64,000 nt of DNA from an uncultured delta proteobacterium. Its GTDB lineage: Bacteria; Desulfobacterota; Desulfobacteria; Desulfobacterales; JAFDCJ01. Where the stretch lies: assembly GCA_963769935.1 (NCBI GenBank), contig CAVYNY010000013.1:352001-416000 (forward strand), read 5' to 3'. The position numbers and the translations under genes were made by a program. Within the stretch, counting starts at the first letter, position 1. The number at the start of each line of letters is the position of its first letter. Positions 31,876 through 63,490 of this stretch are shown here, in pieces. The notes below the pieces were generated by a model. That model ran no database searches and had not been told where the DNA came from. It saw nothing but the letters and a program-made list of their open reading frames with translations.

Positions 31876-31921
31876 AGAACAGATGGTTCTCAAACCGGAG
31901 GGCATCAGAACTCCGTCTTCC
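31876..31921. promoter_or_regulatory. Pair of palindromic activator sites, 31 bp apart
   Basis: AGAA-CAGATGG-TTCT (31876-31890) and AGAA-CTCCGTC-TTCC (31907-31921). Confidence 0.65.
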
Positions 31922-31990
31922 GATTTTAAGCGCATTTCAGACCTCTTTCACCTGTCGGATCTCATTTTCTCTGATTTGCACCATTGCGCT

Positions 31991-32006
31991 GGGCATATTT
32001 TTTGCG
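31991..32006 (+). promoter_or_regulatory. sigma54-like promoter upstream of the DksA/TraR remnant
   Basis: GGGCAT-ATTTT-TTGCG with correct GG-N10-GC spacing. Confidence 0.55.
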
Positions 32007-32131
32007 CCAAGTGATTTGGGATCGAAATTCGGATTTAACTTTCGCAGGATATTTTGGGTCACCGGAAAAAAAGGGCAGGATACCATTAAAACAGGATACC
32101 ATTAAAATAAGATCAGGCTGCCGGAAGACGA

Positions 32132-32345
32132 ATGACAGCCCGGGAGCTGAAAGAAGCCAAACAAATCCGGCTTAATCGAAGAATCAAGCTATGGCAGGAA
32201 ATCAGCAAAGAGATCCAGGAGACGCTGCGTCGAATAAAAAACGGCAAATACGGCTGCTGTCGGGAAGACGGGAACTGGCGTCGGCCGACCCGCCTTAAGG
32301 CTGTGCCGTATGCCGTTTTTTGCCTATCCCGACAGGCGAACGTTG
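32132..32345 (+). pseudogene. Degenerate DksA/TraR zinc-finger remnant
   Basis: EIQETLRRIKNGKYGCCREDG...RLKAVPYAVFCLSRQ: DksA C-terminal pattern with the second Cys of each CxxC lost. Confidence 0.7.
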
Positions 32346-32360
32346 CGATCCTGCGATATT

Positions 32361-32654
32361 CTATTCATCGTCGTCCAGATTGTAATTGGTCCGGTAGTCA
32401 TTTTCATCATGCAGGACCTCATAGCCGGTTACCAGTATCCTGTTTTTGCCCTTCGGATCCCGGCTGACATATCCGGTGACCCGAACATCATTTTCAATTT
32501 CTTTGCCAAGTTTCTCTACCCACTCGTTCGCTTCAACCACATACTCCTCATCTCCAGTGGAGATGGCAATTCCCTTGACCCAACCTTTATCTTCAATTTC
32601 ATAGACAAAACCAATCAAGGTTTCTTCTTTTTCGGCTGTATTATTTATAAACAT
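32361..32654 (-). CDS. Small beta-rich hypothetical protein, paralog A
   Basis: AAGGAGG RBS. G..KGIAIST.DEEYVVE...L...I...VRVTG....G...I.V..Y pattern shared with 50559-50837 and 63519-63758. Confidence 0.85.
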   Translation of the reverse strand: MFINNTAEKEETLIGFVYEIEDKGWVKGIAISTGDEEYVVEANEWVEKLGKEIENDVRVTGYVSRDPKGKNRILVTGYEVLHDENDYRTNYNLDDDE

Positions 32655-32753
32655 TTATTAATCCTCCTTGGGCGCAACCTTTACGTCTCGCAATTACTAC
32701 AACTGAATCAAATTGCAGAAATTCTTCTCGATTCCGGAACCACGCTCCGCTAA

Positions 32754-32909
32754 GGGTTCACGAAAAAATATGTTCACAATTCTAGGCGTTGCGGCGCCCG
32801 TCTGGCAAAGCGCGAAAACGCGGGAATATCTGGATATTCCGAGCTTTCGCAACGCTGCCAGGCGGAATGCAGCGGCGGTTAAAATGTGAAGTTAATTTTG
32901 AGTGAGCCC
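32754..32909. mobile_element. 156 bp MITE, copy 1
   Basis: Imperfect ~25 bp TIRs GGGTTCACGAAAAAA...TTCACA / TGTGAA...TTTTGAGTGAGCCC, flanked by TAA...TAA. Central palindrome GGAATATCTGGATATTCC. Second copy at 53031-53186. Confidence 0.88.
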
Positions 32910-32985
32910 TAAGCCCGGCATGACGCCGATAGTTGCCGGCTCGATGGTATCATCTTGGCGAGCGGCACGGACCATTAGTCTGGAT

Positions 32986-33182
32986 AGCAAAAAGCGTGCT
33001 AAATTTATAACCCTTTGAAATCAAAGCGATCATTGCGCAGGCCGATGAGGAACCGGAACAGCCGATTCCGAAATACCGCCGGATTTTGCTCGAATCAGGA
33101 ACTGCTGATTCCGATTGGATCAGGCTGAATTCGAAAAACTATATTAATTCTCGATCCTTACGAACTTTGCACTCTTTTTGCA
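32986..33182. promoter_or_regulatory. Divergent control region: two palindromic sites and two imperfect sigma54 promoters
   Basis: Minus TAGCAC-GCTTT-TTGCT (32986-33001); GGAA-CAGCCGA-TTCC (33055-33069); GGAA-CTGCTGA-TTCC (33098-33112); plus TTGCAC-TCTTT-TTGCA (33167-33182). Confidence 0.65.
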
Positions 33183-33297
33183 TATATAGGCCTTGAAATA
33201 TAAGTTAACTTTGCCTGAAAAATAGCTTAAAATATATATAGAGACGGCGATTAGAAGAGGGCTTCCAAGGCACCTGTCGACATGGAGATGTAAGATT

Positions 33298-34530
33298 TTG
33301 GATAAAAACGATCACCTAAGTTGTTCATTTTGCGGCAAAAATCAAAACGATGTCAAAAAATTAATTGCCGGACCGGCCGTGTATATCTGTAATGAGTGTA
33401 TTCTGCTGAGCGCAGAAATCCTGAATGAGGAACTGCAGGCGGAAGAAATTGCGACCCGGCGGATATTGACGCCGCGGGATATCAAGGCCCGGCTGGATGC
33501 CTATGTCATTGGACAGGATGCGGCCAAAAAAACGCTCTCGGTCGCCGTTTACAACCACTACAAACGTCTCGGTGTTCCCAGCATGACAGACGAGGTGGAG
33601 ATTCAGAAAAGCAATATCCTGCTCATCGGTTCGACCGGAACCGGCAAAACCCTGCTGGCCCAGACTCTGGCCCGCTTCCTCGATGTACCGTTTGCCATCG
33701 CCGACGCCACCACCCTTACCCAGGCCGGGTATGTGGGCGAAGACGCTGAAAACATTATCCTTTATCTGCTGCAGAATGCGGGCTACGACCTGGAGCGCAC
33801 CCAACGCGGGGTGGTCTACATCGACGAAATCGACAAGATTGCCAGAAAACCTGGATTTTCTTCGACAACCCGCGACGTATCGGGCGAAGGGGTCCAGCAG
33901 GCGCTGCTGAAGATTCTCGAGGGAACGCTCACCAGCGTACCGGTAAAGGGGGGGCGCAAACATCCCCAGCAGGATTTCGTCAAGGTTGACACCACCAACA
34001 TCCTTTTTATCTGCGGGGGAACCTTCACCGGGCTGGACCGAATTATTCAACGCCGTCTGGGTGCCAAAGTTATGGGGTTCGGCGCCAAAATCGCCCGGCA
34101 GCAGGAACGCGAATCCGGTGATATCTTGAGAATGGTCCAGCCTGAGGACCTGCTGGATTTCGGCCTGATTCCCGAATTTATCGGTCGCCTGCCGGTGTTA
34201 GCCGCCCTGCCGGATCTCAATCGGGAGTCCTTGGTGCGGATATTGCTGGAACCTAAAAATGCCATTGTCAAACAGCTGCAAAAACTCTTTGAAATGGAGG
34301 GGGTGCACCTCAGATTTACCGAAGAAGCGCTGAAGGCCACCGCCCAAGAGGCCATCGGTCGCAAGTCCGGCGCCAGAGGACTGCGGACCATTTTAGAGGA
34401 CTGTCTGCTGGATATCATGTATGAGCTTCCTTCCCTTGAAAATGTCAAGGAGTGTGTCATCGATGAAGATGTGGTTTTAAAAAAGGGCAAGCCCTTTTTA
34501 ATCTACGAATCGGTTAAACAACTTGCTTAG
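33298..34530 (+). CDS. clpX: ATP-dependent Clp protease ATP-binding subunit ClpX
   Basis: CSFC..C..C zinc domain, [44 protein letters not shown] loop, GARGLR. Confidence 0.95.
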
Positions 34531-34567
34531 GTGGAACATTTACAATCCCAATCGATAGGACCGCGTA

Positions 34568-36851: not shown

Positions 36852-36866
36852 CACTCCTGATCGAAA

Positions 36867-39116
36867 TTAGAGTGACTTGCAGTAAATGACTTTGTTGTCG
36901 CCCGGAGCGTAGAATTCCGTTAGCACCGCATCCAGCCGGTAGCCGGCATTTTCATAAAAGGCGCGCGTGCTGGCATACTGCAGGCGCTGGGAGGTGTCCA
37001 CATAGATGCGGCTGCCGCCGGCATCCCGGATCAGGTGCTCGGTCTCCTGCAGCAGCCTTTGCCCCAGCCCTTTGCCCTGTATATCCGGATGCACCGCAAT
37101 CCAGTATAGATCGTAGCTGCCGACGGTACACGAAATCTGCCCGTAGCAGGCATAGCCCACCAGGCGGCCGTACTGTTCAGCCATCACGAAATTGTAACCG
37201 CTGGCCGCACCCCGTGCAAGGCGCTCCTGGGCTAGTTCCTCGGCCACATCGACCTCCTCCTGCGAAAAAAAGCCGGTAACCTCAACCAGATGACGAATGC
37301 GTCCGGGGTCTTCCGGCTGCAGTTCATGCCGCAGTTGAATGCCTTGCAGCCTTTCAGGCGAAACTTTGTGGCTTTCGGCCCAACGCTGGGCCGCAAAGGA
37401 CAGCCCTTTAAAGAAATGCAGGGCATTGGTTCCCAGACTGCGGGTCCGATAGCCCCCTTCCTGGACCACCAGCGTCGGCAGGCCCAAACCACCGATCAGG
37501 CGACCGTTGGCCTCGAAATCTTTGGCATTCAGGGACCAGGTACCGGTGGGATCCCCTTTGGCCGGATCCAACCCCAGCGCCACGACCAGGAAATCGGGTT
37601 TAAAATCCGCGATGCGGCGCAGGGCCTTTTCCAGTGCCTTGAGGTGGGCGGCCCCGTCGACGGCCTCCGGCAGCGGCAGGTTCAGGTTGAAGCCCTCCCC
37701 TTCTCCCTCCCCGCACTCCTCCTTGAAACCGCTGAAATAGGGATAGGCAAAGGTGGGATGGCCGTGAATCGAAACGGTCAGGACATCGCTGCGGCGGTAA
37801 AAAATATCCTGCTGCCCGTTGCCGTGGTGATAGTCGATATCCAAAATGGCTACCCGGCCGTACGCGGTCAGGTATTCGGCCGCGATGGCATTGTTGTTGA
37901 AATAACAAAAGCCGCCGAAGTTGCGCCGCTCGGCGTGGTGTCCCGGCGGGCGCACCAGCGCGTAGGTAATCCTGCGGCCTGCCAGCAGCTCGCGGGCGGC
38001 GGTCAGCGCGCAATCGACACCCCGGCGCGCCGCCGGAAAGGCATTGCGATGTATAGGGGTGAAGGTGTCGATACAGTAGTAGCCGGCGAGCACCGAGGGT
38101 TCGTGCGGCGGCCGCGTCTTGTTGCGGATGGGAAAAATGTACGGGTAAAGGGATTTTTTCTCGTCGACTTCCCGGCAGGCCCGCCGCAGATAGTTGACAA
38201 AATCGGCGTCATGGACGGCATAAAGGTGCTTGTCCGGAAATTTGCGCGGTTTGACTTCAACGAACAGCCCGTGGGGCATCAGGGCCGCAGTAATGCTGCG
38301 AATGCGAACCGGGGATTCCACGTAACCGCGATCATGCACATGATGGATGTCATGGCGGTCATTAATGACGACCACGATCTGCTCATCGGATTGCGACGTC
38401 ACGGTCGCGCGCACGGCTTCGGGCTTGACATAGCGAAAAGGACGCAGCTGAACCGGGTCGTCGCGAAAGGAACGGATAACTTTGGTCACGTATTCAGGCG
38501 GACAGTAGTCCGCGTATTTGCGCTCCAGCAAGGCGCGTACGGCTTTCCTGGCAAAACTGCAGCGCGGCGCTTTGATCCGGTCCAAACCGTCGTAAACCAG
38601 ATGCGGCATGCAGCGGTCACCAGGTTTGACCGGCAGTTCGTAGTTCGTGTTGATGATCGGTCGCGCGCCGTAGCGTTCGTAAAAGCGCAAACGCGCCCGG
38701 TTCTCCTTTAAAAGGGCTTCGTCCGGGCAGGCTTCGAATTCGTCGGGCAGGCATTCAAAAAACAGACCTTTGGCGTCCAGGGCCACCGCTTCGCGGCGCA
38801 CGCGGTCGTAGAGGGCCCCGCCGAAACCCCCGCCGGTTTTGCCCTTGACGGAGGCAATCCAGTCTAAAAAACAGAAGCCGATCTGCGGTTCGTGCAGCAG
38901 CATGGCAAACCCCAGCACGCGCCGGCGCAGGTTCTCGGCCACAAAAAGGATGCTGCGCAAGCGCTGTTTGAATGGATTGCGCAGCTTTTCACCGATCAGA
39001 TCAATTTCTTCGGCCGGCACTGCACTGAAGCGGCTCTGCAAAATGGCTTTAACCTGCCGCAAAATTTCGCGGTTGACCGGCACGATATCATCATAGATAC
39101 GACGTATTCGGAGCAT
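36867..39116 (-). CDS. GNAT - HDAC/acetylpolyamine amidohydrolase - GNAT fusion protein
   Basis: N-terminal GNAT-like part (GGGFGGALY, RLRFYERYG); HDAC RPPGHHA, GFCYFNN, DIDYHHGNG, GLD, EGGY; C-terminal GNAT HPDIQGKGLG, RAFYENAGY. Confidence 0.9.
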   Translation of the reverse strand: MLRIRRIYDDIVPVNREILRQVKAILQSRFSAVPAEEIDLIGEKLRNPFKQRLRSILFVAENLRRRVLGFAMLLHEPQIGFCFLDWIASVKGKTGGGFGGALYDRVRREAVALDAKGLFFECLPDEFEACPDEALLKENRARLRFYERYGARPIINTNYELPVKPGDRCMPHLVYDGLDRIKAPRCSFARKAVRALLERKYADYCPPEYVTKVIRSFRDDPVQLRPFRYVKPEAVRATVTSQSDEQIVVVINDRHDIHHVHDRGYVESPVRIRSITAALMPHGLFVEVKPRKFPDKHLYAVHDADFVNYLRRACREVDEKKSLYPYIFPIRNKTRPPHEPSVLAGYYCIDTFTPIHRNAFPAARRGVDCALTAARELLAGRRITYALVRPPGHHAERRNFGGFCYFNNNAIAAEYLTAYGRVAILDIDYHHGNGQQDIFYRRSDVLTVSIHGHPTFAYPYFSGFKEECGEGEGEGFNLNLPLPEAVDGAAHLKALEKALRRIADFKPDFLVVALGLDPAKGDPTGTWSLNAKDFEANGRLIGGLGLPTLVVQEGGYRTRSLGTNALHFFKGLSFAAQRWAESHKVSPERLQGIQLRHELQPEDPGRIRHLVEVTGFFSQEEVDVAEELAQERLARGAASGYNFVMAEQYGRLVGYACYGQISCTVGSYDLYWIAVHPDIQGKGLGQRLLQETEHLIRDAGGSRIYVDTSQRLQYASTRAFYENAGYRLDAVLTEFYAPGDNKVIYCKSL

Positions 39117-39210
39117 CTTTACAAACTCTTTATCTCTGTCTCAACCCGGACAAGACGGTTGGACTGAAAGGGAAATCCCGATTCATCGGGGAACCATAAA
39201 GTGCACATTA

Positions 39211-39283
39211 ATCACGAAAGCACGAAAGGACGAAAACACGAAATGTAGAGAAGATAAATTTCGTGTTTTCAAGATTTCGTGAT
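39211..39283. repeat. Inverted 8-mer tandem repeat (CACGAAAA) inside the kamA operon
   Basis: ATCACGAAAGCACGAAAGGACGAAAACACGAAAT ... ATTTCGTGTTTTCAAGATTTCGTGAT; same family at 61677-61735. Confidence 0.8.
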
Positions 39284-39325
39284 AATAATATTTTTCCATA
39301 AAATGCAAAGAAATCACAATTAAGA

Positions 39326-40378
39326 CTAATGCAGATCGGCCGACCGGATGCGGCGGTATTGCGGCTGCTCGATCCCGTCGGCAACAATCCGTTTTACCGC
39401 CAGGGTAAAATCGATCCCGGCCCGCGCCAGGGCGGCGGCAAAACCGGCGTCAGGGCTTAGACACGGATTGGCGTTGATTTCCAAAATCCAGGGCCGTCCC
39501 TGCCCATCGACCCGATAATCGACCCGGGCATAGCCTCGCAGTCCGAACAATTGCCAAGCTTGCAAGGCCAAGGCCTGCAGCTCGTCGAGCAGGGGGTTGT
39601 CTTCGGTACCGAAATCGAACCTGCGGGGCGTGCGCTGATAATCGTCGGAGTTCACGTCCCATTTGGCACGATAACCGACAATCCGCGGCTGGCCGGCGCC
39701 AAACCCTTCGAAGCTGATCTCGGCCGGCGGCAACACCTGCGGGCCCTTGGGACCGGCCAGGACGGACAAATTAAATTCCCGGCCTTCGACAAAGACCTCG
39801 GCAAAACAAACTCCGCCCAGCGAGGGGGCGCGCCTTTGCATCGTCTGCTCCAGGCTCTGATCGCAGGTGTCTTCGACGATATTGTCCGCCTCCAGACCCA
39901 CCGAGGCATGCTCCCATAAGGATTTGATGATCCAGTGCTGCCCGGAAGAAGCCTGCCGGCCGACAGGCCGTAAAGATGGCGCCGACGGCAAATCCTGTGG
40001 GCAGGGTCCGGTCCAGGCCGGGGTCGGCAACTGCGCGGCAACCATGCGCTCTTTGGCCATTACCTTGTGGGATGTCAACCAGATGGCTTCGGCAGGGGCG
40101 CCGGTGTACCGCAGCCCCATGGCATCCAGCAGTGATGGAACCAGATGAATCAGACATCCGTGTCCGGCCAGAGACTCCACCAGGTTGAACACGAGATCCG
40201 GCCGCTGGGCTTGCAACTGATCGCGCAGCTGTCCCAACTCCAACCCGGCGGGCAGCGAAAAAGTCTCGTGACCCAAAGCCCGCAAGGCCTTTCGGACGGC
40301 ATCCACCTGGACCAGCACGTCCTGCTCATCCGCCGGACCGTCGTCCGTCACGGCGTTGTAAACCACCGACACACGCAT
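39326..40378 (-). CDS. D-Ala-D-Ala ligase-like ATP-grasp protein 2
   Basis: VFNLVES, YTG, IIKS..EHASVG, EVFVEGREF, ARVDYR, LEINANP. Confidence 0.9.
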   Translation of the reverse strand: MRVSVVYNAVTDDGPADEQDVLVQVDAVRKALRALGHETFSLPAGLELGQLRDQLQAQRPDLVFNLVESLAGHGCLIHLVPSLLDAMGLRYTGAPAEAIWLTSHKVMAKERMVAAQLPTPAWTGPCPQDLPSAPSLRPVGRQASSGQHWIIKSLWEHASVGLEADNIVEDTCDQSLEQTMQRRAPSLGGVCFAEVFVEGREFNLSVLAGPKGPQVLPPAEISFEGFGAGQPRIVGYRAKWDVNSDDYQRTPRRFDFGTEDNPLLDELQALALQAWQLFGLRGYARVDYRVDGQGRPWILEINANPCLSPDAGFAAALARAGIDFTLAVKRIVADGIEQPQYRRIRSADLH

Positions 40379-40477
40379 TGTTAGCTCCCACGCTTCTGCG
40401 GTCCGCACCATCATTCGCAGGACGAAAGATCAGATTAAGCCGACCTGGATACGCCGGGTCTGAACTAAAATTCGGAC

Positions 40478-41536
40478 CTATCTGCTTTCTCCCCCTGCAG
40501 CAGCCTGGCGCTGCGAGTCGATGATCTTTCCGGAAACTGCCTGCGACCGCGGCGAAGTCATCCGCCGGCGGGCGGAGGCCATGATTTTTTCGATCAGCAC
40601 CTGATAGGACATGCCGATCCGACTGCAGATGATCGGCAGATCCGAATGCTCCGGATGCAAACCGGCCAGGGGGTTGACTTCCACGAACTGGGGGTTGCCG
40701 CGAGCATCGCAGCGGATATCGATCCGGCCGGCGTCGCGGCAGCCCAGCACGCGCCAGGCCTGCAAAGCAATCGCCTCGGCTTCCCGCACCGTGGCATCCG
40801 CCGCGGCATCAACCAGCCGGTATTCCACCAGTTCTTCACAATTTTCTTTGTTCTCATACGAATAGACCTGGGGTTCGGCGGCCGACCGCAGATGGAGTTC
40901 AATCGAGCCTAAAACTGCGGAATCCATTCCCGTTCCGACCAGACCGACGGTGAACTCGCGCCCCGGCAGGAATTCTTCTACCAGGACCGGCTGCCGATAG
41001 GCGCCAATCAGCTCGGCGCAGCGGGGCAGCAACTCCTCGCGTTGCCGGATGACGGAGGCCGGCGTGACCCCTTTGCCCGTCCCCTCAGCTACCGGCTTTA
41101 CGAAAAATGGCGGATCGAAAGTCACTGGCTCTGCCTGACGGCCGTCTTCAACCACCAGAAAATCCGGGGTCGGCACGCCGGCGTCACGGATCACCCGTTT
41201 GGTAAGGCCCTTGTGCAGCGACAAACTCATGACCAGCGGATCGGAAAAGGTATACGGGATATCATAGGCTTCCAGTAGGGCGGGTACTTGGGCCTCGCGG
41301 CCGAATCCTCTCAAACCCTCGGCGATATTGAATACCATATCCCAGCGGTCCCCTGCAACCAGCCGCTGTGCGAGGCGCATGACATTGCCGATGCGCTCCG
41401 TCCGGTAGCCGAGATCCTGCAAGGTCTGCTCGATGGCTTCAATCGTATCCGGGCGGTCGAATTCGGCCGTCTCCGCCTCGTCGTAGCCCATCGCGCGATA
41501 ATCATCGCGCAAATCATAGGTAAGTCCAATCTTCAC
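40478..41536 (-). CDS. D-Ala-D-Ala ligase-like ATP-grasp protein 1
   Basis: GTG start after AGGAG; VFNIAEG, VKPVAEGTGKG, EEFLPGREF, GRIDIR, VEVNPLAGL. Confidence 0.9.
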   Translation of the reverse strand: MKIGLTYDLRDDYRAMGYDEAETAEFDRPDTIEAIEQTLQDLGYRTERIGNVMRLAQRLVAGDRWDMVFNIAEGLRGFGREAQVPALLEAYDIPYTFSDPLVMSLSLHKGLTKRVIRDAGVPTPDFLVVEDGRQAEPVTFDPPFFVKPVAEGTGKGVTPASVIRQREELLPRCAELIGAYRQPVLVEEFLPGREFTVGLVGTGMDSAVLGSIELHLRSAAEPQVYSYENKENCEELVEYRLVDAAADATVREAEAIALQAWRVLGCRDAGRIDIRCDARGNPQFVEVNPLAGLHPEHSDLPIICSRIGMSYQVLIEKIMASARRRMTSPRSQAVSGKIIDSQRQAAAGGESR

Positions 41537-41565
41537 GACATTTCTCCTACTGCAAACCACGTCAT

Positions 41566-42900
41566 TTATTTCAATGGGCTTTCCGCGACCGGTGCCTCAC
41601 ATCCGCCGGCGATGGGATAACGGTAGATGTCACCGGCATAGTTTTTGAGCAGCAAATCGTTGCCCTCGCGGCCCACCACATATTCCGGCAGGAGCGGAAT
41701 TTTGCCGCCGCCGCCCGGGGCGTCGATGACATAGGTCGGCACCGCGTAGCCGGTGGTGTAGCCGCGCAACCCGTGGATGACCTCCAGACCTTTTTCCACC
41801 GCCGTTCGAAAATGCCCCGAACCCAGAATGGGATCGCACTGGTAAAGATAATAGGGCCTGACCCTGATTCGCAGCAGCCCGTGCACCAGACTTTTCATGG
41901 TATCGACCTGGTCATTGACCCCGGCCAGCAGAACGGTCTGACTGCCGAGCGGAATGCCCGCATCCGCCAGGCGGGTGCAGGCCTCCTGAACTTCGGAGGT
42001 CAACTCGGCCGGATGGGTGCAATGTATGCTCATCATGAGCGGGTGATAACGCTTGAGCATCCGGGTCAGCGCATGGGTAATGCGCTGTGGCAGAACCATG
42101 GGCGCTTTGGTGCCGATCCGTATGATTTCGACATGCGGAATCTGGCGCAATCGCATCAGGAGGTATTCCAGTTTTTCATCGGGCAGGGTCAAAGGATCCC
42201 CGCCGGACAGGAGCACGTCCCTGACCGCGCTGTTCGCTTCGATATAAGCGAAGGCCTCCTCCCACTGCTGCATGTGAAAGGCCGCTTTTTGTCTTTGGCC
42301 TACCATGCGGGACCGGGTGCAGTACCGGCAATACGTGGAGCAGAACTCCGTCACGAGAAACAGGACCCTGTCCGGGTAGCGGTGGATCAACCCCGGAGCG
42401 GGGCTGTCGCTGTCTTCTCCGAGCGGATCATGCGATTCGCCCGCGGAATGCACATACTCGCTCGTCACCGGCACCACCGTGCGGCGCAGAGCCTGTTGGG
42501 GATCGTTCACATCGAGCAGGCTTGCATAGTAAGGGGTGATCGCGAAAGGCAGCGAATGACCATCATGGATCAGGGCCCGGCGTTCATCGTCTGAAAGACG
42601 GATAATCCGCTCCAGCCCGCTCGCGGTTGTAATTCGATTTCTCAGCTGCCAACGCCAGTTATGCCATTGGCTGGCGGTGGCTTCGGGAAAAAATTGTTTA
42701 CGAAAATTTTGCGTCCGTGGATTTTCCGGCAACAGCAGGTTTACCGGTTCCCGGGGTAAGGATTTCATCCCGGGTTTTTTTATATTTGGCAGGATATTGT
42801 GTTCGCAATGCTGGCTTGATTCGGCGTCCATGCGGGGGAACGCCGCCAGCCCGGTACCGGGAGGCTCCGCCTCTTCCGTAGAAAAAATAACTTTTCGCAT
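41566..42900 (-). CDS. kamA: KamA family radical SAM enzyme (lysine 2,3-aminomutase-like)
   Basis: HRYPDRV, CSTYCRYC, LSGGDPL, QTVLL, YLYQCD, VIDAPGGGGK (PLP Lys). Confidence 0.92.
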   Translation of the reverse strand: MRKVIFSTEEAEPPGTGLAAFPRMDAESSQHCEHNILPNIKKPGMKSLPREPVNLLLPENPRTQNFRKQFFPEATASQWHNWRWQLRNRITTASGLERIIRLSDDERRALIHDGHSLPFAITPYYASLLDVNDPQQALRRTVVPVTSEYVHSAGESHDPLGEDSDSPAPGLIHRYPDRVLFLVTEFCSTYCRYCTRSRMVGQRQKAAFHMQQWEEAFAYIEANSAVRDVLLSGGDPLTLPDEKLEYLLMRLRQIPHVEIIRIGTKAPMVLPQRITHALTRMLKRYHPLMMSIHCTHPAELTSEVQEACTRLADAGIPLGSQTVLLAGVNDQVDTMKSLVHGLLRIRVRPYYLYQCDPILGSGHFRTAVEKGLEVIHGLRGYTTGYAVPTYVIDAPGGGGKIPLLPEYVVGREGNDLLLKNYAGDIYRYPIAGGCEAPVAESPLK

Positions 42901-42976: not shown

Positions 42977-42992
42977 AGCAATATATGTGCCA
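42977..42992 (-). promoter_or_regulatory. sigma54 promoter of the kamA operon
   Basis: Minus strand TGGCAC-ATATA-TTGCT. Confidence 0.85.
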
Positions 42993-43042: not shown

Positions 43043-43191
43043 CTTCGGAACCGCAAGTTCCGAAGTTTCACGACTTTGTTCGACTACCGCCTGTTTAGCC
43101 GCTTAAAAAGCGGCTATGGGGACATTGGCCGGCAACCCGCAGGACGAACTGCAAGTTCTTATCCGGCTCAAAAACAGGAATTGTCATATCT
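43043..43191. promoter_or_regulatory. Three palindromic activator sites upstream of kamA
   Basis: CTTCGGAA-CCGCAAG-TTCCGAAG (43043-43065); CGAA-CTGCAAG-TTCT (43145-43159); weaker GGAA-TTGTCAT-ATCT (43177-43191). Confidence 0.7.
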
Positions 43192-50079: not shown

Positions 50080-50095
50080 AGCAACAGATATGCCA
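50080..50095 (-). promoter_or_regulatory. sigma54 promoter
   Basis: Minus strand TGGCAT-ATCTG-TTGCT, 14 bp from ATG 50065. Confidence 0.75.
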
Positions 50096-50235: not shown

Positions 50236-50282
50236 AGAACTCCCAGTTCTGATGGCCGTGAAAAACAAGAACTTTTCTTTCT
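50236..50282. promoter_or_regulatory. Pair of palindromic activator sites, 32 bp apart
   Basis: AGAA-CTCCCAG-TTCT (50236-50250) and AGAA-CTTTTCT-TTCT (50268-50282), between divergent sigma54 promoters. Confidence 0.62.
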
Positions 50283-50459: not shown

Positions 50460-50475
50460 TGGCACACGCTTTGCT
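50460..50475 (+). promoter_or_regulatory. sigma54 promoter
   Basis: TGGCAC-ACGCT-TTGCT. Confidence 0.8.
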
Positions 50476-50558: not shown

Positions 50559-50837
50559 ATGAAAAAACCGCAAAACCCGGAAGTCACCGGCATCATCATG
50601 CCGAATAATTGGGATAAGAACGGCAATGTCATTCAAATTGCAATTTACACAAATGAAGAAGAGATCTATCTCGTGGAACACAACCACCTGGGGCAGGAGC
50701 TTTTGAATCATATCAACCGCAGGGTCGCGGTCAGAGGCAAAAAAAGGGAACGCCTGGACGGCAACAGCTATATTGCTGTTCAAAAATATATTGTCCTGGA
50801 AGAGATAGTCGAAGACGAAACTTTAATGAAATCATAG
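50559..50837 (+). CDS. Small beta-rich hypothetical protein, paralog B
   Basis: VTGIIMPNNWDKNGNVIQIAIYTNEEEIYLVE aligns by eye with 63519-63758 and 32361-32654. Confidence 0.85.
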   Translation: MKKPQNPEVTGIIMPNNWDKNGNVIQIAIYTNEEEIYLVEHNHLGQELLNHINRRVAVRGKKRERLDGNSYIAVQKYIVLEEIVEDETLMKS

Positions 50838-52238
50838 TCCGTCTTTAAACGATTCTTTTTGAATACCATACTTTACCATCAACTTGTTCAATTGACGGGC
50901 GCTGATGCCGGCATCCTGCGCGGCACTGTTTACCCGGCCCTTGTTGCGGGAAAAAAGCTCCCTGAGGTAGTGGCGCTCAAAATTTTCGACGGCTCGGCGC
51001 CGGGCCTCGGCCAATGAAAGATTGACATTTACCGGCAACACGGCGGCCGGACCGCCGGATTCGAAAAGCTCGGCGGGAAAGCCGTCCGAGGTCAGCAGCG
51101 GCGCGGTCTCAAGAATATAGGCGCGTTCCATCAGGTTTTCCAACTCACGGATGTTGCCCGGCCAATGGTAGTTTTTCAGCGCCTGAAGAACCCGCGAATG
51201 GACGGAATGAATGTTTTTGCCGTATTTCAGGTTTAATTTTTTTAAAAATACTTCCAGCAGATAGGGGATATCCTCAATGCGGTCCCTGAGCGGCGGCACT
51301 TCAACGGCAAATACGTTCAGGCGGAAGTAAAGGTCTTTTCTGAACTCTCCCTTGTTGCTCATTCCGAATAAATCGGCGTTGGTGGCGGCGATGACTCGGG
51401 CGTCGGTCTGCATAACATCTTCACCGCCGACGCGGCTGAAGGTTCCGTCCTGCAGAACCTGCAGCATCTTGACCTGTGCCGGCGGCGAAATGGTGCCGAT
51501 CTCGTCCAGAAAAATGGTGCCGCCCCGGGCCATTTCGAATTTACCCGGTTTTCGGCGGATCGCTCCCGTAAAGGCGCCTTTTTCATGACCGAACAGTTCA
51601 CTTTCCAGCAAGGTGTCCGGAATCGCTCCGCAGTGCACGCTGATGAACGGGGCATCACTGCGGTGGCTGTGCCGGTGGATCATTCTGGCCAACAGCCCCT
51701 TGCCGGTTCCGGTTTCACCCATCAGCAGCACCGTAGCCCTGGTTGGTGCAACCGCCCGAATCTTTTTGAATACTTCCCGCATACCGGCGGTGTTCGTGTG
51801 GATGACTGCCAGCCACTCGGATTTCCAGAACTGGTCCCGCAGATAGTCCAGCTCCAGATTGGTGGTATGGGATTCATTCAGGGATTCGATCACCAGCCGC
51901 ACTTCGGACGGATCAATGGGGTAGGTCAGGTAGTTGTGAGCGCCGGCTTTCACGGCCTTGACGGCCTGTCGGATCGATTCTTTTGAGGCCAGCACCACGA
52001 ACTCTGTTAAAAAATTCGATTCCTTAAACGGCTTTACGGCATCCGTATAATCGTTGGCCGGCGAAGCTTCGCCCAAAACCGTCAAATCGGAAAAGATAAC
52101 ATCGAATAAACGCTGACGGTGAAGACCGAGCGCACCCTGAATACTGTCCGAATGCTCCGTATGATAGTCCGGCGGCAGCGATGACCGGATCAGGCGGGCA
52201 ATCTCTTGGTCCGGTGCTATAATGAGCACAGATTTCAT
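50832..52238 (-). CDS. sigma54-dependent activator with atypical receiver domain, paralog 1
   Basis: GETGTGKG, VHCGAIP, GAFTGA, FLDEI, GNIREL, HTH AAQDAGISARQLNKLM. Confidence 0.93.
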   Translation of the reverse strand: MKSVLIIAPDQEIARLIRSSLPPDYHTEHSDSIQGALGLHRQRLFDVIFSDLTVLGEASPANDYTDAVKPFKESNFLTEFVVLASKESIRQAVKAVKAGAHNYLTYPIDPSEVRLVIESLNESHTTNLELDYLRDQFWKSEWLAVIHTNTAGMREVFKKIRAVAPTRATVLLMGETGTGKGLLARMIHRHSHRSDAPFISVHCGAIPDTLLESELFGHEKGAFTGAIRRKPGKFEMARGGTIFLDEIGTISPPAQVKMLQVLQDGTFSRVGGEDVMQTDARVIAATNADLFGMSNKGEFRKDLYFRLNVFAVEVPPLRDRIEDIPYLLEVFLKKLNLKYGKNIHSVHSRVLQALKNYHWPGNIRELENLMERAYILETAPLLTSDGFPAELFESGGPAAVLPVNVNLSLAEARRRAVENFERHYLRELFSRNKGRVNSAAQDAGISARQLNKLMVKYGIQKESFKDGL

Positions 52239-52952: not shown

Positions 52953-53030
52953 GTCCCGGCAGAAACGACTGCGTTACTTCTACCCCACATGAAGAGTTAA
53001 ATACAATTATGCGACGTTAGGGTGAAGTTA

Positions 53031-53186
53031 GGGTTCACGAAAAAATTAATTCACAGTTTTAGGCGCTGAGGCGCTCTTCCGGCAAAGCGCGAAAACGCAG
53101 GAATATCTGGATATTCCGAGCTTTCACAACGCAGCCGGAAGAGATGGACCGGCGTATAAAATGTGAAGTTGTTTTTGAGTGAGCCC
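53031..53186. mobile_element. 156 bp MITE, copy 2
   Basis: Same TIRs and core as 32754-32909, flanked by TTA...TTA; the right TTA is the stop codon of the adjacent minus-strand gene. Confidence 0.88.
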
Positions 53187-53543
53187 TTAGGCGACCTTCT
53201 GCAGTCTTTTCTCGATTCTGACGGTACCGGTATCCTTGCTGAACCAGCCGAAGAACAGAATCATATCCGGATGGTCGTCCAAAGAATTGTAATTTTTAAT
53301 CACCACGCCCTGGCGGGCCGCATCAGTGGGGTCGAAGACTCTGACTTCAAATGCATGCTTTTCCTCGGCTTTCGGACGCAGGGCACATTTCAGACTCCAC
53401 ACCCAATCCGGGTCTTCCTTCAGACGAGTCACCATATGCATTCCCACGCGGTCCGGCAGGTCCTTGGGTTTCGCTAATTTAACCTCACTGCTGCCGGAGG
53501 AATTTTCACCTTGTTTTTCCTTTTGCCAAAATTTCCAGCTCAT
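53187..53543 (-). CDS. Hypothetical protein (MSWKFWQK...)
   Basis: 118 aa ORF with globular composition, AAGG upstream and its own sigma54 promoter. Confidence 0.8.
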   Translation of the reverse strand: MSWKFWQKEKQGENSSGSSEVKLAKPKDLPDRVGMHMVTRLKEDPDWVWSLKCALRPKAEEKHAFEVRVFDPTDAARQGVVIKNYNSLDDHPDMILFFGWFSKDTGTVRIEKRLQKVA

Positions 53544-53600: not shown

Positions 53601-53682
53601 AGCAAGTCTCATGCCAAATAGTAATTGAATGATTTTATTATAATTAGTATTATCGTAATCGAAAATCAGAACCGGAAATTCC
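53601..53682 (-). promoter_or_regulatory. sigma54 promoter plus palindromic activator site
   Basis: Minus TGGCAT-GAGAC-TTGCT (53601-53616); AT-rich spacer; AGAA-CCGGAAA-TTCC (53668-53682). Confidence 0.75.
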
Positions 53683-53714: not shown

Positions 53715-55156
53715 ATGGAAAGCCTCGGCTCACTGGGATTGATTAAAGCATTGCTTAATTGGCGGACAGCGCTGGACATCCTTCTGATGGCGGCCGGACT
53801 ATTTTTTTTGTACCGCACATTACTGCGTCTCGGAACCTGGCGGATATTTGTCGGCATTCTGGCGGCTTTAGGCCTTTTTCTCATCGCCAGTCTCCTGGAT
53901 CTCAGGGGCCTCGAATGGATTTTCGGCAACCTCAGTCAGGTAGCTGTGATCGCGCTGATCGTCATCTTTCAGCCGGAAATTAGAAAAATATTTGAACGCG
54001 CTGTATCGGTTAGACGCGCTGAAACGGGGATAGAGAGGATGAACTTTCACAAATAGCGGCCGAGTCCCTGTGGAAATTGGCCCAGCAGCACCGGGGAGCC
54101 ATTGTGGTCTTTCCCGGCAAAGAGCCCATCGATGAATGGCTTTCGGGCGGCTTTAAGTTGGATGCCAAGCCGAGCAGCCCCTTGATCATGAGCATCTTCG
54201 ATCCGAACTCGCCCGGACATGACGGCGCCCTCATTATTCAAAACGGAAAATTCAAGCGATTCGGCGTTCGCCTGCCGGTATCCCAGAGTTCCAGGCTGCC
54301 TGAAGAATACGGTACCCGCCACCACGCGGCCATGGGCCTGGCGGAGAAGTCGGATGCACTGGTTATTGTTGTATCGGAAGAACGCGGCCGGGTATCTATT
54401 TTCAAGGATCGCCGTTTCCGCACGGTGACCGACCTTGATCAAATCGGTAAAAGAATTATTTCCCATTGGAAAGACACGACTTCATACTTCAATAAAATGC
54501 CCGATCGAGAATCAAGGTGGAAACTACTGCCCCAGGTCTTTGCAAGTCTGGTCGTGGCGGTGTTTTTTTGGTCGACATTAATTACTGCCCAGGGCGAGAT
54601 GCTCGAAAAGATCATTGCCGTCCCGGTTGAATACACGGCATCCCCGGCCAATCTTATGCTGATCGGTGACAAGCAGAAAGAAGTCCGCCTGCATCTCGCC
54701 GGTTCGCGCTCAGACCTTGATTCCATTAACCCGTCGCAATTAAATGTAACGGTGGACCTTTCCAAGGCCGCCGCCGGCAAGCAAACCTTTCCAATTACCG
54801 CTGAAAATATTCGATTGCCGCGCGATGTCAAACTACTCGATGTAATTCCTTCCGGTGTGGAGCTGACCCTGGCCGAAATTGAAGAACGTGAAGTGCCGAT
54901 TATGCCGCAGTTGATCGGCAAACTGCCCGACAACCTGAAGATTTTGGATTTGAAAATTATTCCCGCCAAAGTTAAAGTGCTTTCGCCGGCCGCCGTTGGC
55001 AAGGACAATGCCGCCAGCATCATCACCACACCGATTTACCTTGAGGGCATTTACAACGATACCAGCGTCTTCTGCAAAATCATCGCACCATCGGCCTTTC
55101 AGCCGGCAGAAAAGCGCTGGCCGGATGTCGAAGTGCAGATCAAGGTAGGTAATTAA
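53715..55156 (+). CDS. dacA: Membrane diadenylate cyclase (CdaA-like) fused to a YbbR/CdaR-like region; one frameshift near 54026-54029
   Basis: 3 TM helices + VIFQPEIR, then in a shifted frame RGAIVV, SIF.P.SPGHDGA, GTRHHAA.G, VVSEERG; a further TM and YbbR-like beta domain (V.L.G...DL...L.VTVDLS). Confidence 0.85.
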
Positions 55157-57732: not shown

Positions 57733-57751
57733 CTCTAAAAAATTAAAGCAC

Positions 57752-59125: not shown

Positions 59126-61432
59126 TCAAGGTCGATGCGATCTGTTGGACACAAACTTGTCGCCCGAAGCCTTCAATGCTTCCCGGACCCCGCGGATAGT
59201 GGTCCGGGCCAGAAGCGCGGCGGCGTAATCCCGGGCTTCGGCAATCTTTATGCCCGCTGCAGCTTGCTGGATCGCCGGTAAAAAGCTGGGATAAACACTG
59301 AAAATTCGAACCCCGATGCCGAGTAGAAAAGGAATATAGTCGGTTTCATGGGCCAGTTCACCGCATACGGACAGCTCCTTGCCGGCCTTTTCCGCTGCCG
59401 TAGCGATTTTGGACAGGCCCCTGAGTACCGCCGGGTGCCACGGCTCATAGTATTCGGCCACTTTGTCGTTCGATCGGTCGACGGCCAGCATGTACTGGAC
59501 GAAATCGTTGGTTCCGATAGACATGAAATCCGCTTCCGCCGCTATTTCATCAATTATCTCCAGCAGGGACGGGACTTCGATCATAATACCGATCAGCGGA
59601 TTTTTATGATGGGGGAAGTTGTTGTGTTTGAGATCGGCCAGACAATCGTCCACCGCCACTCTGGCCGACCTGAATTCATCCAGCGAGCCGATCATCGGAA
59701 ACATGATGCGCAGATCGTTAAAATCGGCTGCTGCTCTGAGAATGGCACTCAGCTGCTGTTGAAAAAGATCACGATGGCGCAGGGATAACCGAATGGCTCT
59801 TAATCCCAGGTCGGGATTCGACTCCCGGGATGTATCGGAATAGGACAGCAATTTATCGCCGCCCAGATCAAGGGTACGAATGGTCACCGGTCGGCCGGAC
59901 ATATCGTCGAACAGACGCCGATACACCGTGTATTGCTCTTCTTCCGAAGGTATTTCGGATCGAATCAAAAAGGGAAACTCCGTCCGATAAAGACCGACGC
60001 CTTCAGCCTTGAGCTCGCGCGCCAGAATCAAATCACGCAGCAAGTTGATGTTCGCCAGCAATCGAAGGCGCGTGCCGTCCCGGGTTTGCGTCACGGCTTG
60101 CATCGATTCGGCCAGGGAGGCGATAACCGCATGGATATCCTTCTGGGATTCAAACTGCTTGACGATCCTGGCCGACGGCTCCACGTATATATTGCCGATC
60201 TCAGCATCCATCAATACGGGAGTACCGTCGGGGATTTGCAGCAACTCCTCACGGTCGGCGATGATCATGGGGATCTGCAGGGAGCGGGCCAGAATGGCCA
60301 CATGCGAAGTTGCCCCGCCGCTGACCAGAATAATGCCTTTCACATCGTCAGATGCTATTTTCAAAACATCGGACGGGTAAAGCTTGTTGGCAATCACGAC
60401 GCGATTTCCACTAAAATACGTCTCTTGCCCGTTTGATTGTCTGAGATTGGCCAGCAGGCGCTCGGCAAGATCTTCGACATCGTGCGCTTTTTCCCGCAAA
60501 AGCGGATGACTGCTCGATGAAAATAAAGCCGCATAATGTTCGGAGACCGAACGGATGGCCTGGGCGACCGGTATTTTTTGACTGACGCGCGTCTTTATTT
60601 CCTCAACGAAATGAGCATCTTTGAGCATCATTATGTGGGCCGTAAAGATCAGTGAGGCACTCTCCGGCAGGCGCTCTGCAAAGCGGGACTGCATTTCTTT
60701 GATCTGCTCGACCGTTGCCAGCATTGCCCTTTGAAAATCGTTGAGCGTGTGCCCCGGATCGGATTCATGGTCCTCATTCAGCCGGGCGCCATGGTTTTTG
60801 TCGAGCCGCATGGAAGGCCCGAACGCAAAGCCGCCTGAGACTGTAACCCCTTTGATGAATTGCAGCCGGTCTTTAAAAATCTTGACTCGGGGAAGCTTTT
60901 GTTGGTGCCGGTTGTGATCCATTAGAAAGCGTGCATTTCCAATGGCGCCGGCCAGCTGGGACGCAATCGCCCGCATGGCAATCACGTCGCGATGATCGAA
61001 GTAGTCGCGTTTTTCGTGCTGCACGACCAGCACGCCGATTTTTTCCACCCCCCTGAGAATGGGCACGCCAAGCAGGGAATTAAATCGATCTTCTTCAGCT
61101 TCTTCAAAATATTTAAACCGCGGGTTGCGGCTGGCGAAACCTTCATTTATGGGTCCCCGGCTTTCAAAGATCGTGCCCACCAGGCCTTCACCCACTTGCA
61201 TGCGCACCCGGCCGACGGCAGCCGGATTCAATCCAATGGTTGCTTCCAGAACCAGCTCTTCATTTTCCTCATCGAGCAGATAAATTGAGCAAACATCCGC
61301 ATCCATATGCCGGTTGACCATTGCCACCGTTTGCCGTAAAAAGGATTCGATATTGTCACTGCCCGTTAGAAGAGCGGCCAATTCGGAAACGTCGCACAAC
61401 AGGTCTAAATGCTCACGGTTTTTTCTCGTCAT
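59126..61432 (-). CDS. ptsP: GAF-domain phosphoenolpyruvate-protein phosphotransferase (EI-Ntr-like)
   Basis: N-terminal GAF (CSIYL, GEGLVG), TSHVAILAR, GVGLYRTEF, RTLDLGGDK, LGLRAIR, SIGTND, CGE. Confidence 0.93.
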   Translation of the reverse strand: MTRKNREHLDLLCDVSELAALLTGSDNIESFLRQTVAMVNRHMDADVCSIYLLDEENEELVLEATIGLNPAAVGRVRMQVGEGLVGTIFESRGPINEGFASRNPRFKYFEEAEEDRFNSLLGVPILRGVEKIGVLVVQHEKRDYFDHRDVIAMRAIASQLAGAIGNARFLMDHNRHQQKLPRVKIFKDRLQFIKGVTVSGGFAFGPSMRLDKNHGARLNEDHESDPGHTLNDFQRAMLATVEQIKEMQSRFAERLPESASLIFTAHIMMLKDAHFVEEIKTRVSQKIPVAQAIRSVSEHYAALFSSSSHPLLREKAHDVEDLAERLLANLRQSNGQETYFSGNRVVIANKLYPSDVLKIASDDVKGIILVSGGATSHVAILARSLQIPMIIADREELLQIPDGTPVLMDAEIGNIYVEPSARIVKQFESQKDIHAVIASLAESMQAVTQTRDGTRLRLLANINLLRDLILARELKAEGVGLYRTEFPFLIRSEIPSEEEQYTVYRRLFDDMSGRPVTIRTLDLGGDKLLSYSDTSRESNPDLGLRAIRLSLRHRDLFQQQLSAILRAAADFNDLRIMFPMIGSLDEFRSARVAVDDCLADLKHNNFPHHKNPLIGIMIEVPSLLEIIDEIAAEADFMSIGTNDFVQYMLAVDRSNDKVAEYYEPWHPAVLRGLSKIATAAEKAGKELSVCGELAHETDYIPFLLGIGVRIFSVYPSFLPAIQQAAAGIKIAEARDYAAALLARTTIRGVREALKASGDKFVSNRSHRP

Positions 61433-61676
61433 GGCTTCTTTCCTGATACCAGGCATATATCATTAGGCTTGCCAACACTGCGTTCGGTCGATTCGACCCT
61501 ATACGGTAGTTTTAAAATCAACCGTAATTCGGCGATTGCAAAATTATTTATGGGTATAAATACCATTTTTGGGGAAAAAATAAAGAGCATTTCAATTGTG
61601 ATTTTCACCATCTCCTGATATAAATACTAAAGTGTTAACTGTAACTTCCTTTCATTTTATGAAAATTTTGTTTCCA

Positions 61677-61735
61677 GCACGAAAACACGAAATTAAAAAA
61701 GCACGAAATTTGTCTTTTCTCCTTTTCGTGTTTTT
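61677..61735. repeat. Inverted 8-mer tandem repeat (CACGAAAA)
   Basis: GCACGAAAACACGAAATTAAAAAAGCACGAAATT ... TTTTCGTGTTTT. Confidence 0.7.
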
Positions 61736-61870
61736 GCCTGCCCGGTTAAACCTTTTTTCTCTGTTTAACCGGGGTCCTTTCGCAATTAATTCCTTTTTTG
61801 GTTCCGGCTTGTCCGGGTTAAGGTCTGGTGATTTAGATTCGGAAACAGAAAGTCTGACTGGGATCTGCCA

Positions 61871-63271
61871 ATGAAATCAATTCTGGTGGTAAGCCGAGCG
61901 GAACACGCCTATGAACGCATTCTGTCGGTATTCAAATCAAACGACACAGTGAAAAAGGCTGCGGAAAGGACATCGGCGCTGGAGCTTCTCCATAAGAAGC
62001 GATTTGATATGATTTTCATTGATTTGAATGTGCTGAATAACATCGATGCCGGTGAGAATTACCAGGAAGCCCTGATGCCTTTCTGGCAGTTGCATCCATC
62101 CGTGGAAATCATTGTCATGACACCTCAGGAAAAGATACGCAGCGCCGTCAAAGCTGTCAAAGCCGGCGCCAGTGATTATCTCACCTACCCGCTGGACGCC
62201 GAAGAATTGAAGTTGGTATCGGAAAATATAAACAAAACCAGAATGTTGCAGTCTGAGCTGGACTACCTGCGGGGTCAATTCGGACGAACGGACTTATGTG
62301 AGCTTTTAATGACCCACAGCGAACCGATGAAGAAGGTTTATCAACAAATCCGGTCTGTATCCCCGACCAAGAGTACCGTGCTGCTGATCGGTGAAACCGG
62401 AACCGGCAAGAGCGTCCTGTCAAAGCTGATTCATCGGCAGAGCAACCGCAAAGATGCGCCGTTTATCAGCTTCCATTGCGGCGCTATACCGGACACATTG
62501 ATCGAAAGTGAATTGTTTGGACACGAAAAGGGGTCTTTCACCGGAGCGGTGCGCCGAAAATTAGGCAAATTCGAATTTGCAACGGGCGGTACGATTTTTC
62601 TGGATGAGATCGGCACGATCACTCCGGCAGCTCAAATCAAACTGTTGCAGGTTCTGCAGGACGGAACGTATCAACGGGTCGGCGGCGAAGAGACCCTGAA
62701 AACCGATGTCAGGATTATTACGGCCACGAATGCCGACCTTAAAAAAATGTGCGACGAGGGAACGTTCAGAAAGGATCTGTATTACCGACTGAATGTTTTT
62801 CCGATTGAGATTCCGCCCCTGCGGGAAAGATTGGATGATATCCCGCTGTTTATCGACACTTTTTTAAAAAAACTGAACCAATTTTCACAAAAAAAGATTC
62901 ACGGCGTGCACCCGCTGGTAATAGAGTTTTTTCAGAAGTACGCCTGGCCGGGTAACATCCGGGAACTGGAAAATCTGGTCGAAAGAGCCTGTATCCTGGA
63001 AGTCTCCTCTGTATTGACGCCGGAAAGTTTTCCCGGCGAACTCTTCGATCCCGAAACGACCTCTGTATTTATTCCTTCCAGTGAGCATATGAATCTGGCG
63101 GAGGCCAGGCAGCGGGGCATAGAGGAAATCGAAAGGAAATATATCAAGGATGTTCTAACCCGCAACAAAGGCCGGATTAATGAATCCGCCGGCGATGCCG
63201 GCATAAGTTCCCGTCAGCTGAATAAATTGATGAACCGCTACGGCATACGTAAAGAAGAGTTTAAAGTTTAA
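61871..63271 (+). CDS. sigma54-dependent activator with atypical receiver domain, paralog 2
   Basis: GETGTGKS, FHCGAIP, GSFTGA, FLDEI, GNIREL, HTH SAGDAGISSRQLNKLM; collinear with 50832-52238. Confidence 0.93.
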   Translation: MKSILVVSRAEHAYERILSVFKSNDTVKKAAERTSALELLHKKRFDMIFIDLNVLNNIDAGENYQEALMPFWQLHPSVEIIVMTPQEKIRSAVKAVKAGASDYLTYPLDAEELKLVSENINKTRMLQSELDYLRGQFGRTDLCELLMTHSEPMKKVYQQIRSVSPTKSTVLLIGETGTGKSVLSKLIHRQSNRKDAPFISFHCGAIPDTLIESELFGHEKGSFTGAVRRKLGKFEFATGGTIFLDEIGTITPAAQIKLLQVLQDGTYQRVGGEETLKTDVRIITATNADLKKMCDEGTFRKDLYYRLNVFPIEIPPLRERLDDIPLFIDTFLKKLNQFSQKKIHGVHPLVIEFFQKYAWPGNIRELENLVERACILEVSSVLTPESFPGELFDPETTSVFIPSSEHMNLAEARQRGIEEIERKYIKDVLTRNKGRINESAGDAGISSRQLNKLMNRYGIRKEEFKV

Positions 63272-63275
63272 ATCC

Positions 63276-63420
63276 GGAATCCAAAATTCCGGGTATCAAA
63301 AATATCGGAATCTGCAATTCCTAACCCATCGTCTCACAAACCCCCACAGTCGGCTTTATTTTCACGTCCCATCAGCCGTCCCTGTTCGCCCCCCTGCAGC
63401 GAGTCGGAACCAATGGTTCC
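63276..63420. promoter_or_regulatory. Three palindromic activator sites
   Basis: GGAA-TCCAAAA-TTCC (63276-63290), GGAA-TCTGCAA-TTCC (63307-63321), GGAA-CCAATGG-TTCC (63406-63420). Confidence 0.78.
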
Positions 63421-63474
63421 GAAATTAATTTCATCCAAATAAAATAATAATACAATTTCAATACGTTAGGAATT

Positions 63475-63490
63475 TGGCATCAGGATTGCA
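63475..63490 (+). promoter_or_regulatory. sigma54 promoter
   Basis: TGGCAT-CAGGA-TTGCA. Confidence 0.8.

Follow-up and report, generated by a model that had tools for sequence, protein, structure and literature searches.

Promoters of the sigma-54 type that are served by enhancer sites and integration host factor (IHF) belong to a textbook class of mechanism. The closest described system is the DVU0619 regulon of Desulfovibrio (Nitratidesulfovibrio) vulgaris, for which the accessible parts of Kazakov 2015 (PMC4641369) give nine sites for DVU0619, Desal_1331 and DvMF_1510, three per promoter; these sites are of the AAGAAC-N5-GTTCTT type, are spaced 29-31 and 126 bp, and stand upstream of a single operon whose two genes are hypothetical. 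The same parts class DVU0619 as a two-component response regulator and make no mention of a pseudo-receiver or of an IHF site. It was the only paper found on DVU0619 or on DVU0617/DVU0616/Desal_1331/DvMF_1510, and none was found on the activator family treated here or on a comparable regulon of Desulfobacterales, in a search whose coverage left out most subscription papers. DVU0619 is not mentioned in the main text of Rajeev et al. 2011 (PMC3333781), so far as that text is accessible. For NorR at norVW of E. coli, the available part of Tucker et al. (PMC2831303) contains an estimate that about 130 bp wrap the activator ring.

The present work deals with a stretch of 64,000 nucleotides (the window, C13:352001-416000) from an assembly of 8.0 Mb in 41 contigs, and with the palindrome RGAA-N7-TTCY that recurs in it. 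This motif belongs to a fixed promoter cassette consisting of a pair of sites, a third site, an A+T-rich spacer with an IHF consensus, and a -24/-12 box. With a probability of roughly 85%, the conserved enhancer cassette is read by the two DVU0619-family activators encoded at 50832-52238 (activator A, minus strand) and 61871-63271 (activator B, plus strand). The motif and the DVU0619 assignment are already predicted in print; added here are a wider regulon, a geometry that includes an IHF site, and the pseudo-receiver, none of which was found in the literature searched. An earlier reading made from the letters of the window (the sequence-only reading), which had proposed the motif and its binding by the two activators, missed the DVU0619 motif prediction, the regulon beyond the window, the IHF site and the pseudo-receiver domain.

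All 13 palindromes that it listed are found at their coordinates, 11 of them being exact matches to (G/A)GAA-N7-TTC(C/T) and two (43145 and 43177) having one mismatch each; the window contains 16 exact matches, the other five being intragenic (21622, 23257, 24555, 28234 and 55738). The pair spacings of 31, 32, 32 and 31 bp and the five site-to-box gaps of 53, 54, 54, 51 and 54 intervening bases also agree with what it had described, as does the mirrored layout of the kamA and 63534 promoters. Hereafter, a distance runs from the final base of the 15-bp site up to the T that precedes the GG of the box. General consensus motifs were used for sigma-54 and IHF, the sigma-54 box score is hand-made, and the site matrix was trained on the 13 window sites only. 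Next to activator B the cassette is complete: the distal (63276-63290), middle (63307-63321) and proximal (63406-63420) sites lie 185, 154 and 55 bp from the box at 63475-63490 (plus strand), and an IHF-consensus match with one mismatch (63456-63468, plus strand) abuts the -24 element. In the kamA promoter the proximal site (43047-43061) is 55 bp from the box at 42977-42992 (minus strand), and the imperfect pair (43145-43191) is 153 and 185 bp from it. GG and GC dinucleotides 10 bp apart are present at boxes 31991, 42992, 50095, 50460, 53616 and 63475.

The same arrangement is conserved in a pooled set of 126 distinct promoters from roughly 44 genomes, in which the pair is 30-32 bp apart and the third site follows about 100 bp further on. 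The proximal site is present in 96 of the 126 promoters, with a gap of 55 bp in 42, a figure that is circular because the proximal pattern itself served to retrieve many of the loci; that pattern included neither the pair nor the IHF site. The pair occurs in 90 of the 126 promoters, at a spacing of 30-32 bp in 88 (only 29-33 bp was allowed), and 60 promoters have all three sites. Middle-to-proximal distances of 79-82 bp (three promoters), 92-96 bp (seven) and 98-106 bp (50) are consistent with helical phasing. An IHF consensus lies in the spacer (72% A+T), 5-6 bp ahead of the box, in 56 of 96 promoters (shuffled sequences: 0.44, maximum 3) and at none of 99 other strong sigma-54 boxes. Related genomes in these surveys are kin, hence not independent, and the RNA runs X1-X4, all from one study, are contigs of related strains that carry no start sites, strands or levels. 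A promoter that has a single site or a single pair is likely weaker, or uses its sites in common with a divergent promoter.

Genome-wide, the enrichment anticipated by the sequence-only reading holds by position near sigma-54 boxes and does not hold for the bare motif in intergenic DNA at large. "Intergenic" is only approximate here because the gene calls come from our own script (6,660 genes, 77% coding). Counted upstream from the -24 box, the preferred positions of the sites are near 55, 156 and 187 bp. Sites with the N7 spacer number 17 within 250 bp of a strong box, against 0-6 for nine other spacers (window included). Sites are also clustered, with 13 intergenic matches in one 64-kb bin that overlaps the second half of the window, five in the next bin and a mean of 1.16 (P = 4.5e-8); this P value is not an independent test because the motif was picked from the same window. 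Independent tests are those made outside the window and in other genomes. Outside the window, eight of 367 boxes have a matrix site at 52-57, 153-159 or 184-190 bp, whereas shifted windows give 2.0 on average and 4 at most; the test is partly post hoc, since the distance windows were fixed after the outside cassettes had been seen. Seven outside promoters have two or three sites (C9:66319, C13:84019, C13:416196, C13:589824, C14:32915, C20:53274 and C22:436433) and, together with eight window boxes, they bring the candidate promoters of this genome to 15.

Cross-genome co-occurrence ties the cassette to the activators, and with the positional tie outside the window it supports the binding that had been predicted for the two paralogs. 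In a survey of 300 genomes of the phylum (five candidates per genome were scored, so some carriers may be missed), a strict promoter-plus-proximal-site pattern was present in 17 of the 41 genomes with the activator and in four of the 259 without it, and the reversed control pattern was found in six of the 300. Among near relatives the strict pattern occurs in 14 of 22 genomes of the same genus and in seven of 18 others of the same order (control, 0 of 41). The 700 bp downstream of the activator gene contain at least two sites in 16 of 18 close and eight of 20 distant loci, a count that omits L019 as a non-member (42% over the AAA+ part). Of the 61 activator-like genes of this genome, only the two window paralogs have at least two sites directly downstream.

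Several findings weigh against the reading of the cassette by these activators. The bare motif has 145 exact intergenic matches in the genome, compared with 139-235 for spacers of 2-13, so that there is no enrichment, and at a matrix score of 12 there are 234 coding matches versus 83 intergenic ones. The strict pattern is missing from 24 of the 41 activator-bearing genomes, in 12 of the 20 distant loci at most one site directly follows the activator gene, and just five of the 15 candidate promoters of this genome have an IHF match. The accessible parts of PMC4641369 derive the DVU0619 assignment from co-localisation only, as a computational prediction. One family member, P0162, which stands outside our 37-row alignment, retains the receiver lysine discussed below. 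Finally, of the five boxes cited in the sequence-only reading three are canonical, and two, 33001 (TAGCAC) and 33167 (TTGCAC), are without the -25 G, AG and TG respectively replacing GG at -25/-24. In relatives (L003, L203 and L207) both boxes are found again, together with their sites, at the orthologous position, and TG variants at -25/-24, not AG, are given for three D. vulgaris promoters in the available parts of PMC4641369; because of this recurrence and of the TG variants, boxes 33001 and 33167 may be weak promoters.

Activators A (468 amino acids, GAFTGA) and B (466 amino acids, GSFTGA) are paralogs with 54% identity, each predicted to belong to the DVU0619 family, which has a pseudo-receiver, an AAA+ domain and a putative Fis-type helix-turn-helix. 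Sequence comparison confirmed that their helix-turn-helix recognition segments are nearly identical, as had been noticed earlier; the common recognition helix is conserved in the 37 family rows of the alignment. The two proteins match PF00158 at E 1e-65 and 3e-68, and for PF02954, the Fis-type helix-turn-helix, activator A reaches only E 0.029. The nearest named loci to activator B carry the label Desulfobacterales, and a plasmid collection searched with activator B gave no match at E 1e-90.

The orthologous relation to DVU0619 is drawn from the metagenome locus L132, which contains all three published DVU0617 sites and the promoter, with a gap of 54; its activator stops 2 bp before the first DVU0617 site, and the target is present as first codons only. 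Among 120 metagenome matches to one published site, only L132 has the activator and the other sites, and the others look like chance. The cluster of the L132 activator includes AAS95100.1 of N. vulgaris, which is 49-50% identical to both window paralogs, shows the same receiver changes, has them as its best matches (449 and 444 bits, the next being 317, in a one-way test), and falls within their clade in a quick tree (Shimodaira-Hasegawa-like approximate likelihood ratio test, 100). From the gene order in L132 we infer that AAS95100.1 is DVU0619. By eye, all nine published DVU0619-regulog sites fit RGAA-N7-TTCY.

That some other regulator binds the sites, be it another of the sigma-54 activators of this genome (60 matches to the activator domain) or a repressor that is no activator, is considered very unlikely. 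In its favour, the helix filed under DVU0619 in supplementary file 2 of PMC4641369, in the parts available, is unlike those of the window proteins and resembles that of C17:186629, the DVU0621 helix being the one like theirs, and the strict pattern does appear in four genomes in which no activator was detected. Nevertheless, the activator next to the DVU0617 sites carries the helix filed as DVU0621 (L132:323-616), for which reason the DNA-binding-domain labels of DVU0619 and DVU0621 in that file are probably swapped. Moreover, for 56 of the 61 activator-like genes there is no intergenic site in the surrounding 3 kb, and the four genomes with the pattern but no detected activator are in line with the reversed-pattern background of six in 300. 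C17:186629 was rejected as the binder, there being no sites near its boxes.

Regarding the signal, the receivers of the family depart from the phosphorylatable type: in the 37 rows the acidic pair is lost, the lysine position has tyrosine in 35 and lysine in none, the aspartate position has aspartate in 30 and glutamate in seven, and the threonine/serine position has threonine or serine in 16 and alanine in 17. Of 23 pattern-matched receiver-type activators in this genome, 21 have the lysine and the two exceptions are the window paralogs. Control of the activator without phosphorylation is likely, given a receiver without the acidic pair and the lysine. No kinase domain was found among the 44 window proteins, and a kinase was found in two of 50 activator loci, at 3.6 and 4.7 kb, with a crude query set and some loci being short. 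The activator would instead be controlled by a small ligand or a partner protein.

By analogy with NorR and other enhancer-binding proteins, three activator dimers would occupy the three sites and assemble an AAA+ hexamer, IHF would bend the spacer DNA between sites and promoter, and the hexamer would open the sigma-54 closed complex. The outer span of the three sites is 129-136 bp in 49 of the 60 three-site promoters and 155 bp in D. vulgaris. HrpR and HrpS act together as a mixed hexamer, and the two window paralogs, which share 54% identity and the same helix, might do likewise at the same site, or activator B alone might be active; two activator matches are also present in genomes G067, G221, G305 and G313. 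This is unlikely, since 39 of the 41 genomes gave a single match, so that one protein suffices, and both paralogs retain the sigma-54 contact loop.

The other window promoters have one or two sites. At 53668-53682 a proximal site lies 52 bp from the box at 53601-53616 (minus strand) and 33 bp before the start of a split cdaA, with an IHF-consensus match with one mismatch at 53622-53634 (minus strand) and a conserved predicted target at 53187-53543 (minus strand), a 118-amino-acid protein with no Pfam family. The pair 50236 and 50268 (50236-50282), which has no proximal site, is situated between divergent boxes, 141/173 bp from the one at 50080-50095 (minus strand), before a DUF5698 gene and a glutamate dehydrogenase (GDH)-like/CBS gene, and 178/210 bp from the one at 50460-50475 (plus strand), before a small gene at 50559-50837 (plus strand) that is a predicted target. 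This gene codes for 92 amino acids and belongs to a family with an oligonucleotide/oligosaccharide-binding (OB) fold. Sites 33055 and 33098 (33055-33112), 43 bp apart, are each 54-55 bp from one of the two divergent non-canonical boxes, 32986-33001 (minus strand, with an IHF match at 33008-33020) and 33167-33182 (plus strand). The former precedes the third small OB-family gene (32361-32654, minus strand, 97 amino acids, predicted target) and the latter a clpX copy (33298-34530, plus strand), a predicted target in this genome only. The pair 31876 and 31907 (31876-31921), also without a proximal site, is at the atypical distances of 101 and 70 bp from the weak box 31991, upstream of a DksA-like remnant, and is probably a decayed cassette. 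Five bases of a further distal site (63996-64000) close the window, the cassette continuing outside it with sites at C13:415996/416027/416128 and box 416196.

Because the window holds three OB-family paralogs along with remnants (DksA-like, Usp and the split cdaA), and some cassettes are partial, the cassette could be read as a by-product of recent duplication of a promoter plus a small gene, many copies being non-functional. As a general account this is most unlikely: the pooled promoters conserve the motif, the IHF consensus and the -24/-12 box and not the spacers, unrelated genes (kamA, groES, the dksA unit and the 118-amino-acid gene) share the layout in different genomes, and relatives have the non-canonical boxes, sites included, at the orthologous position. 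It may apply to the pair 31876/31907 specifically.

Several side observations were also made. An element of about 160 bp with terminal inverted repeats, forming one long hairpin, has copies at 32753-32913 and 53030-53189 and is found at 77 places in the genome; it looks like a miniature inverted-repeat element. The diadenylate cyclase gene cdaA is split into two frames (53715-54056 and 54077-55156), as is an acyl-CoA synthetase gene, in two overlapping frames (11171-11956 and 11847-12953). The DksA/TraR-like remnant occupies 32132-32467 and a Usp fragment of 56 amino acids 52621-52791; shortly beyond the end of the window there is an intact dksA, preceded by a complete cassette. Divergent sigma-54 boxes without the palindrome, at 10268 (minus strand) and 10594 (plus strand), precede a CitMHS/ArsB-type transporter gene and a Usp gene, and a third activator (14159-15586), with a PAS-type N-terminus by eye, is encoded nearby.

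With respect to the predicted targets, the commonest first gene behind the 126 promoters codes for the small-protein family, in cytoplasmic and signal-peptide forms (47 cases); it is followed by the 118-amino-acid protein (10), groES/groEL (7), a 71-amino-acid protein (6), YitT (5), PilZ-like (5), KamA (5) and one three-member cluster. Single cases include dnaK, Usp, ptsP and clpX, and Hsp20 is also among the targets. In this genome the 71-amino-acid gene, behind box C13:416196, precedes dksA and an HU-like gene. The small family, which includes the cytoplasmic-type predicted target of 74-79 amino acids next to activator B (63519-63758, plus strand), has an OB fold according to the structure model (predicted local distance difference test score 89, a five-stranded OB barrel), a fold that reveals no function. 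The best structure matches of the model were Z 9.5 with a root-mean-square deviation (rmsd) of 2.1 over 70 residues and Z 8.1 with an rmsd of 2.5 over 68, followed by SSB/PriB/YgiW; Foldseek with the model gave no match at E 0.001, and the OB alignment, searched by sequence against solved structures, had no significant match. Pfam has no family for the small target proteins of the window, Atlas has only unnamed clusters, and one exported relative matches DUF5818 below the cut-off. Signal-peptide forms occur behind the same cassette at C20:53387-53671 and in relatives (L164, L173 and L205), the exported form often being the second gene after the cytoplasmic one.

The conserved predicted target operon at 36867-42900 (minus strand) encodes a KamA-family radical SAM protein, two ATP-grasp ligases and a deacetylase-GNAT fusion. 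Its KamA scores 472.9 bits against the 525.4 required by TIGR03820 (AblA), and passes the wider TIGR00238; the KamA and GNAT pair presumably resembles the N-acetyl-beta-lysine route. Of 49 activator loci, 10 encode a KamA and 12 the 118-amino-acid protein. Neighbours common to activator loci are ATP-grasp/GNAT, DgcA/DgcN-like and RimK/RimB-like genes, as well as a glycosyltransferase like mannosylglucosylglycerate synthase (below the cut-off).

The conserved targets (small OB-fold proteins, DksA/HU, KamA-ATP-grasp-GNAT and, in relatives, chaperones) suggest a stress role, and about even odds are given to a general or salt/osmotic stress response as the output. The chaperone part of this reading is weakened here because the groES/groEL and dnaK copies of this genome have no cassette (one lone weak site). 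It is doubtful that the regulon instead governs amino-acid or glutamate-peptide metabolism and nitrogen status, as the GDH-like protein, DgcA/DgcN-like, PtsP, RimK/RimB-like, ATP-grasp and KamA neighbours and targets might indicate; the targets in relatives also comprise groES/groEL (seven promoters), dnaK, Hsp20, Usp and the dksA unit, and no glutamine synthetase or ammonium transporter was recognised on reading through the first genes of the 126 promoters. A wider version of the stress reading is speculative and rather unlikely to hold as a whole: a phosphorylation-independent sigma-54 switch for general or salt stress in Desulfobacterota, parallel to sigma-32 and HrcA, in which a pseudo-receiver activator would be restrained by its own OB-fold target (feedback) and a portable 220-bp cassette with three sites plus IHF would drive chaperones, DksA/HU, and compatible-solute or peptide synthesis.

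What had been predicted for one operon of a model sulfate reducer, with no function assigned, is extended here to a widespread cassette with a candidate regulon, whose precise geometry can be used for scanning genomes. The activator probably senses its signal without a kinase, and both signal and binding can be tested through the orthologue in D. vulgaris, a genetically tractable species.

Compared with known systems, as far as the accessible parts of the respective papers describe them, NrfR (DVU0621) differs from the present system in its motif, of the GTCA-N8-TGAA type, and in its target nrfHA; no nrfA-like gene was found among the families common to at least four of 49 activator loci. FlbD/DVU1063 (Rajeev et al. 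2011, PMC3333781) likewise has a receiver without active-site residues, possibly not activated by phosphorylation, whereas its motif (GGCA-N4-TGCC), its flagellar targets and its helix are different. The deltaproteobacterial heat-shock control by sigma-32 and HrcA/CIRCE (Rodionov et al. 2004, PMC545781) covers overlapping kinds of targets in relatives (groESL, dnaK and clpX), with no sigma-54 route described in the parts consulted; in this genome, one clpX is the only chaperone copy that has the cassette. NorR at norVW also has three palindromic sites, an IHF site between sites and promoter, and three dimers that form one hexamer (PMC2831303); it differs in its motif (GT-N7-AC), its GAF sensor for nitric oxide and its single operon, and its three-site requirement is carried over here by analogy only. 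The closest likeness is with the DVU0619 regulon of N. vulgaris Hildenborough, which has the same motif, three sites, a pair 29-31 bp apart and a 54-bp gap, with the sites directly after the activator gene. The middle-to-proximal distance is 126 bp there and 98-103 bp in most promoters here, the distal pair being about 25 bp closer; and whereas the DVU0619 system has one target operon, the present genome has two paralogous activators and up to 15 candidate promoters.

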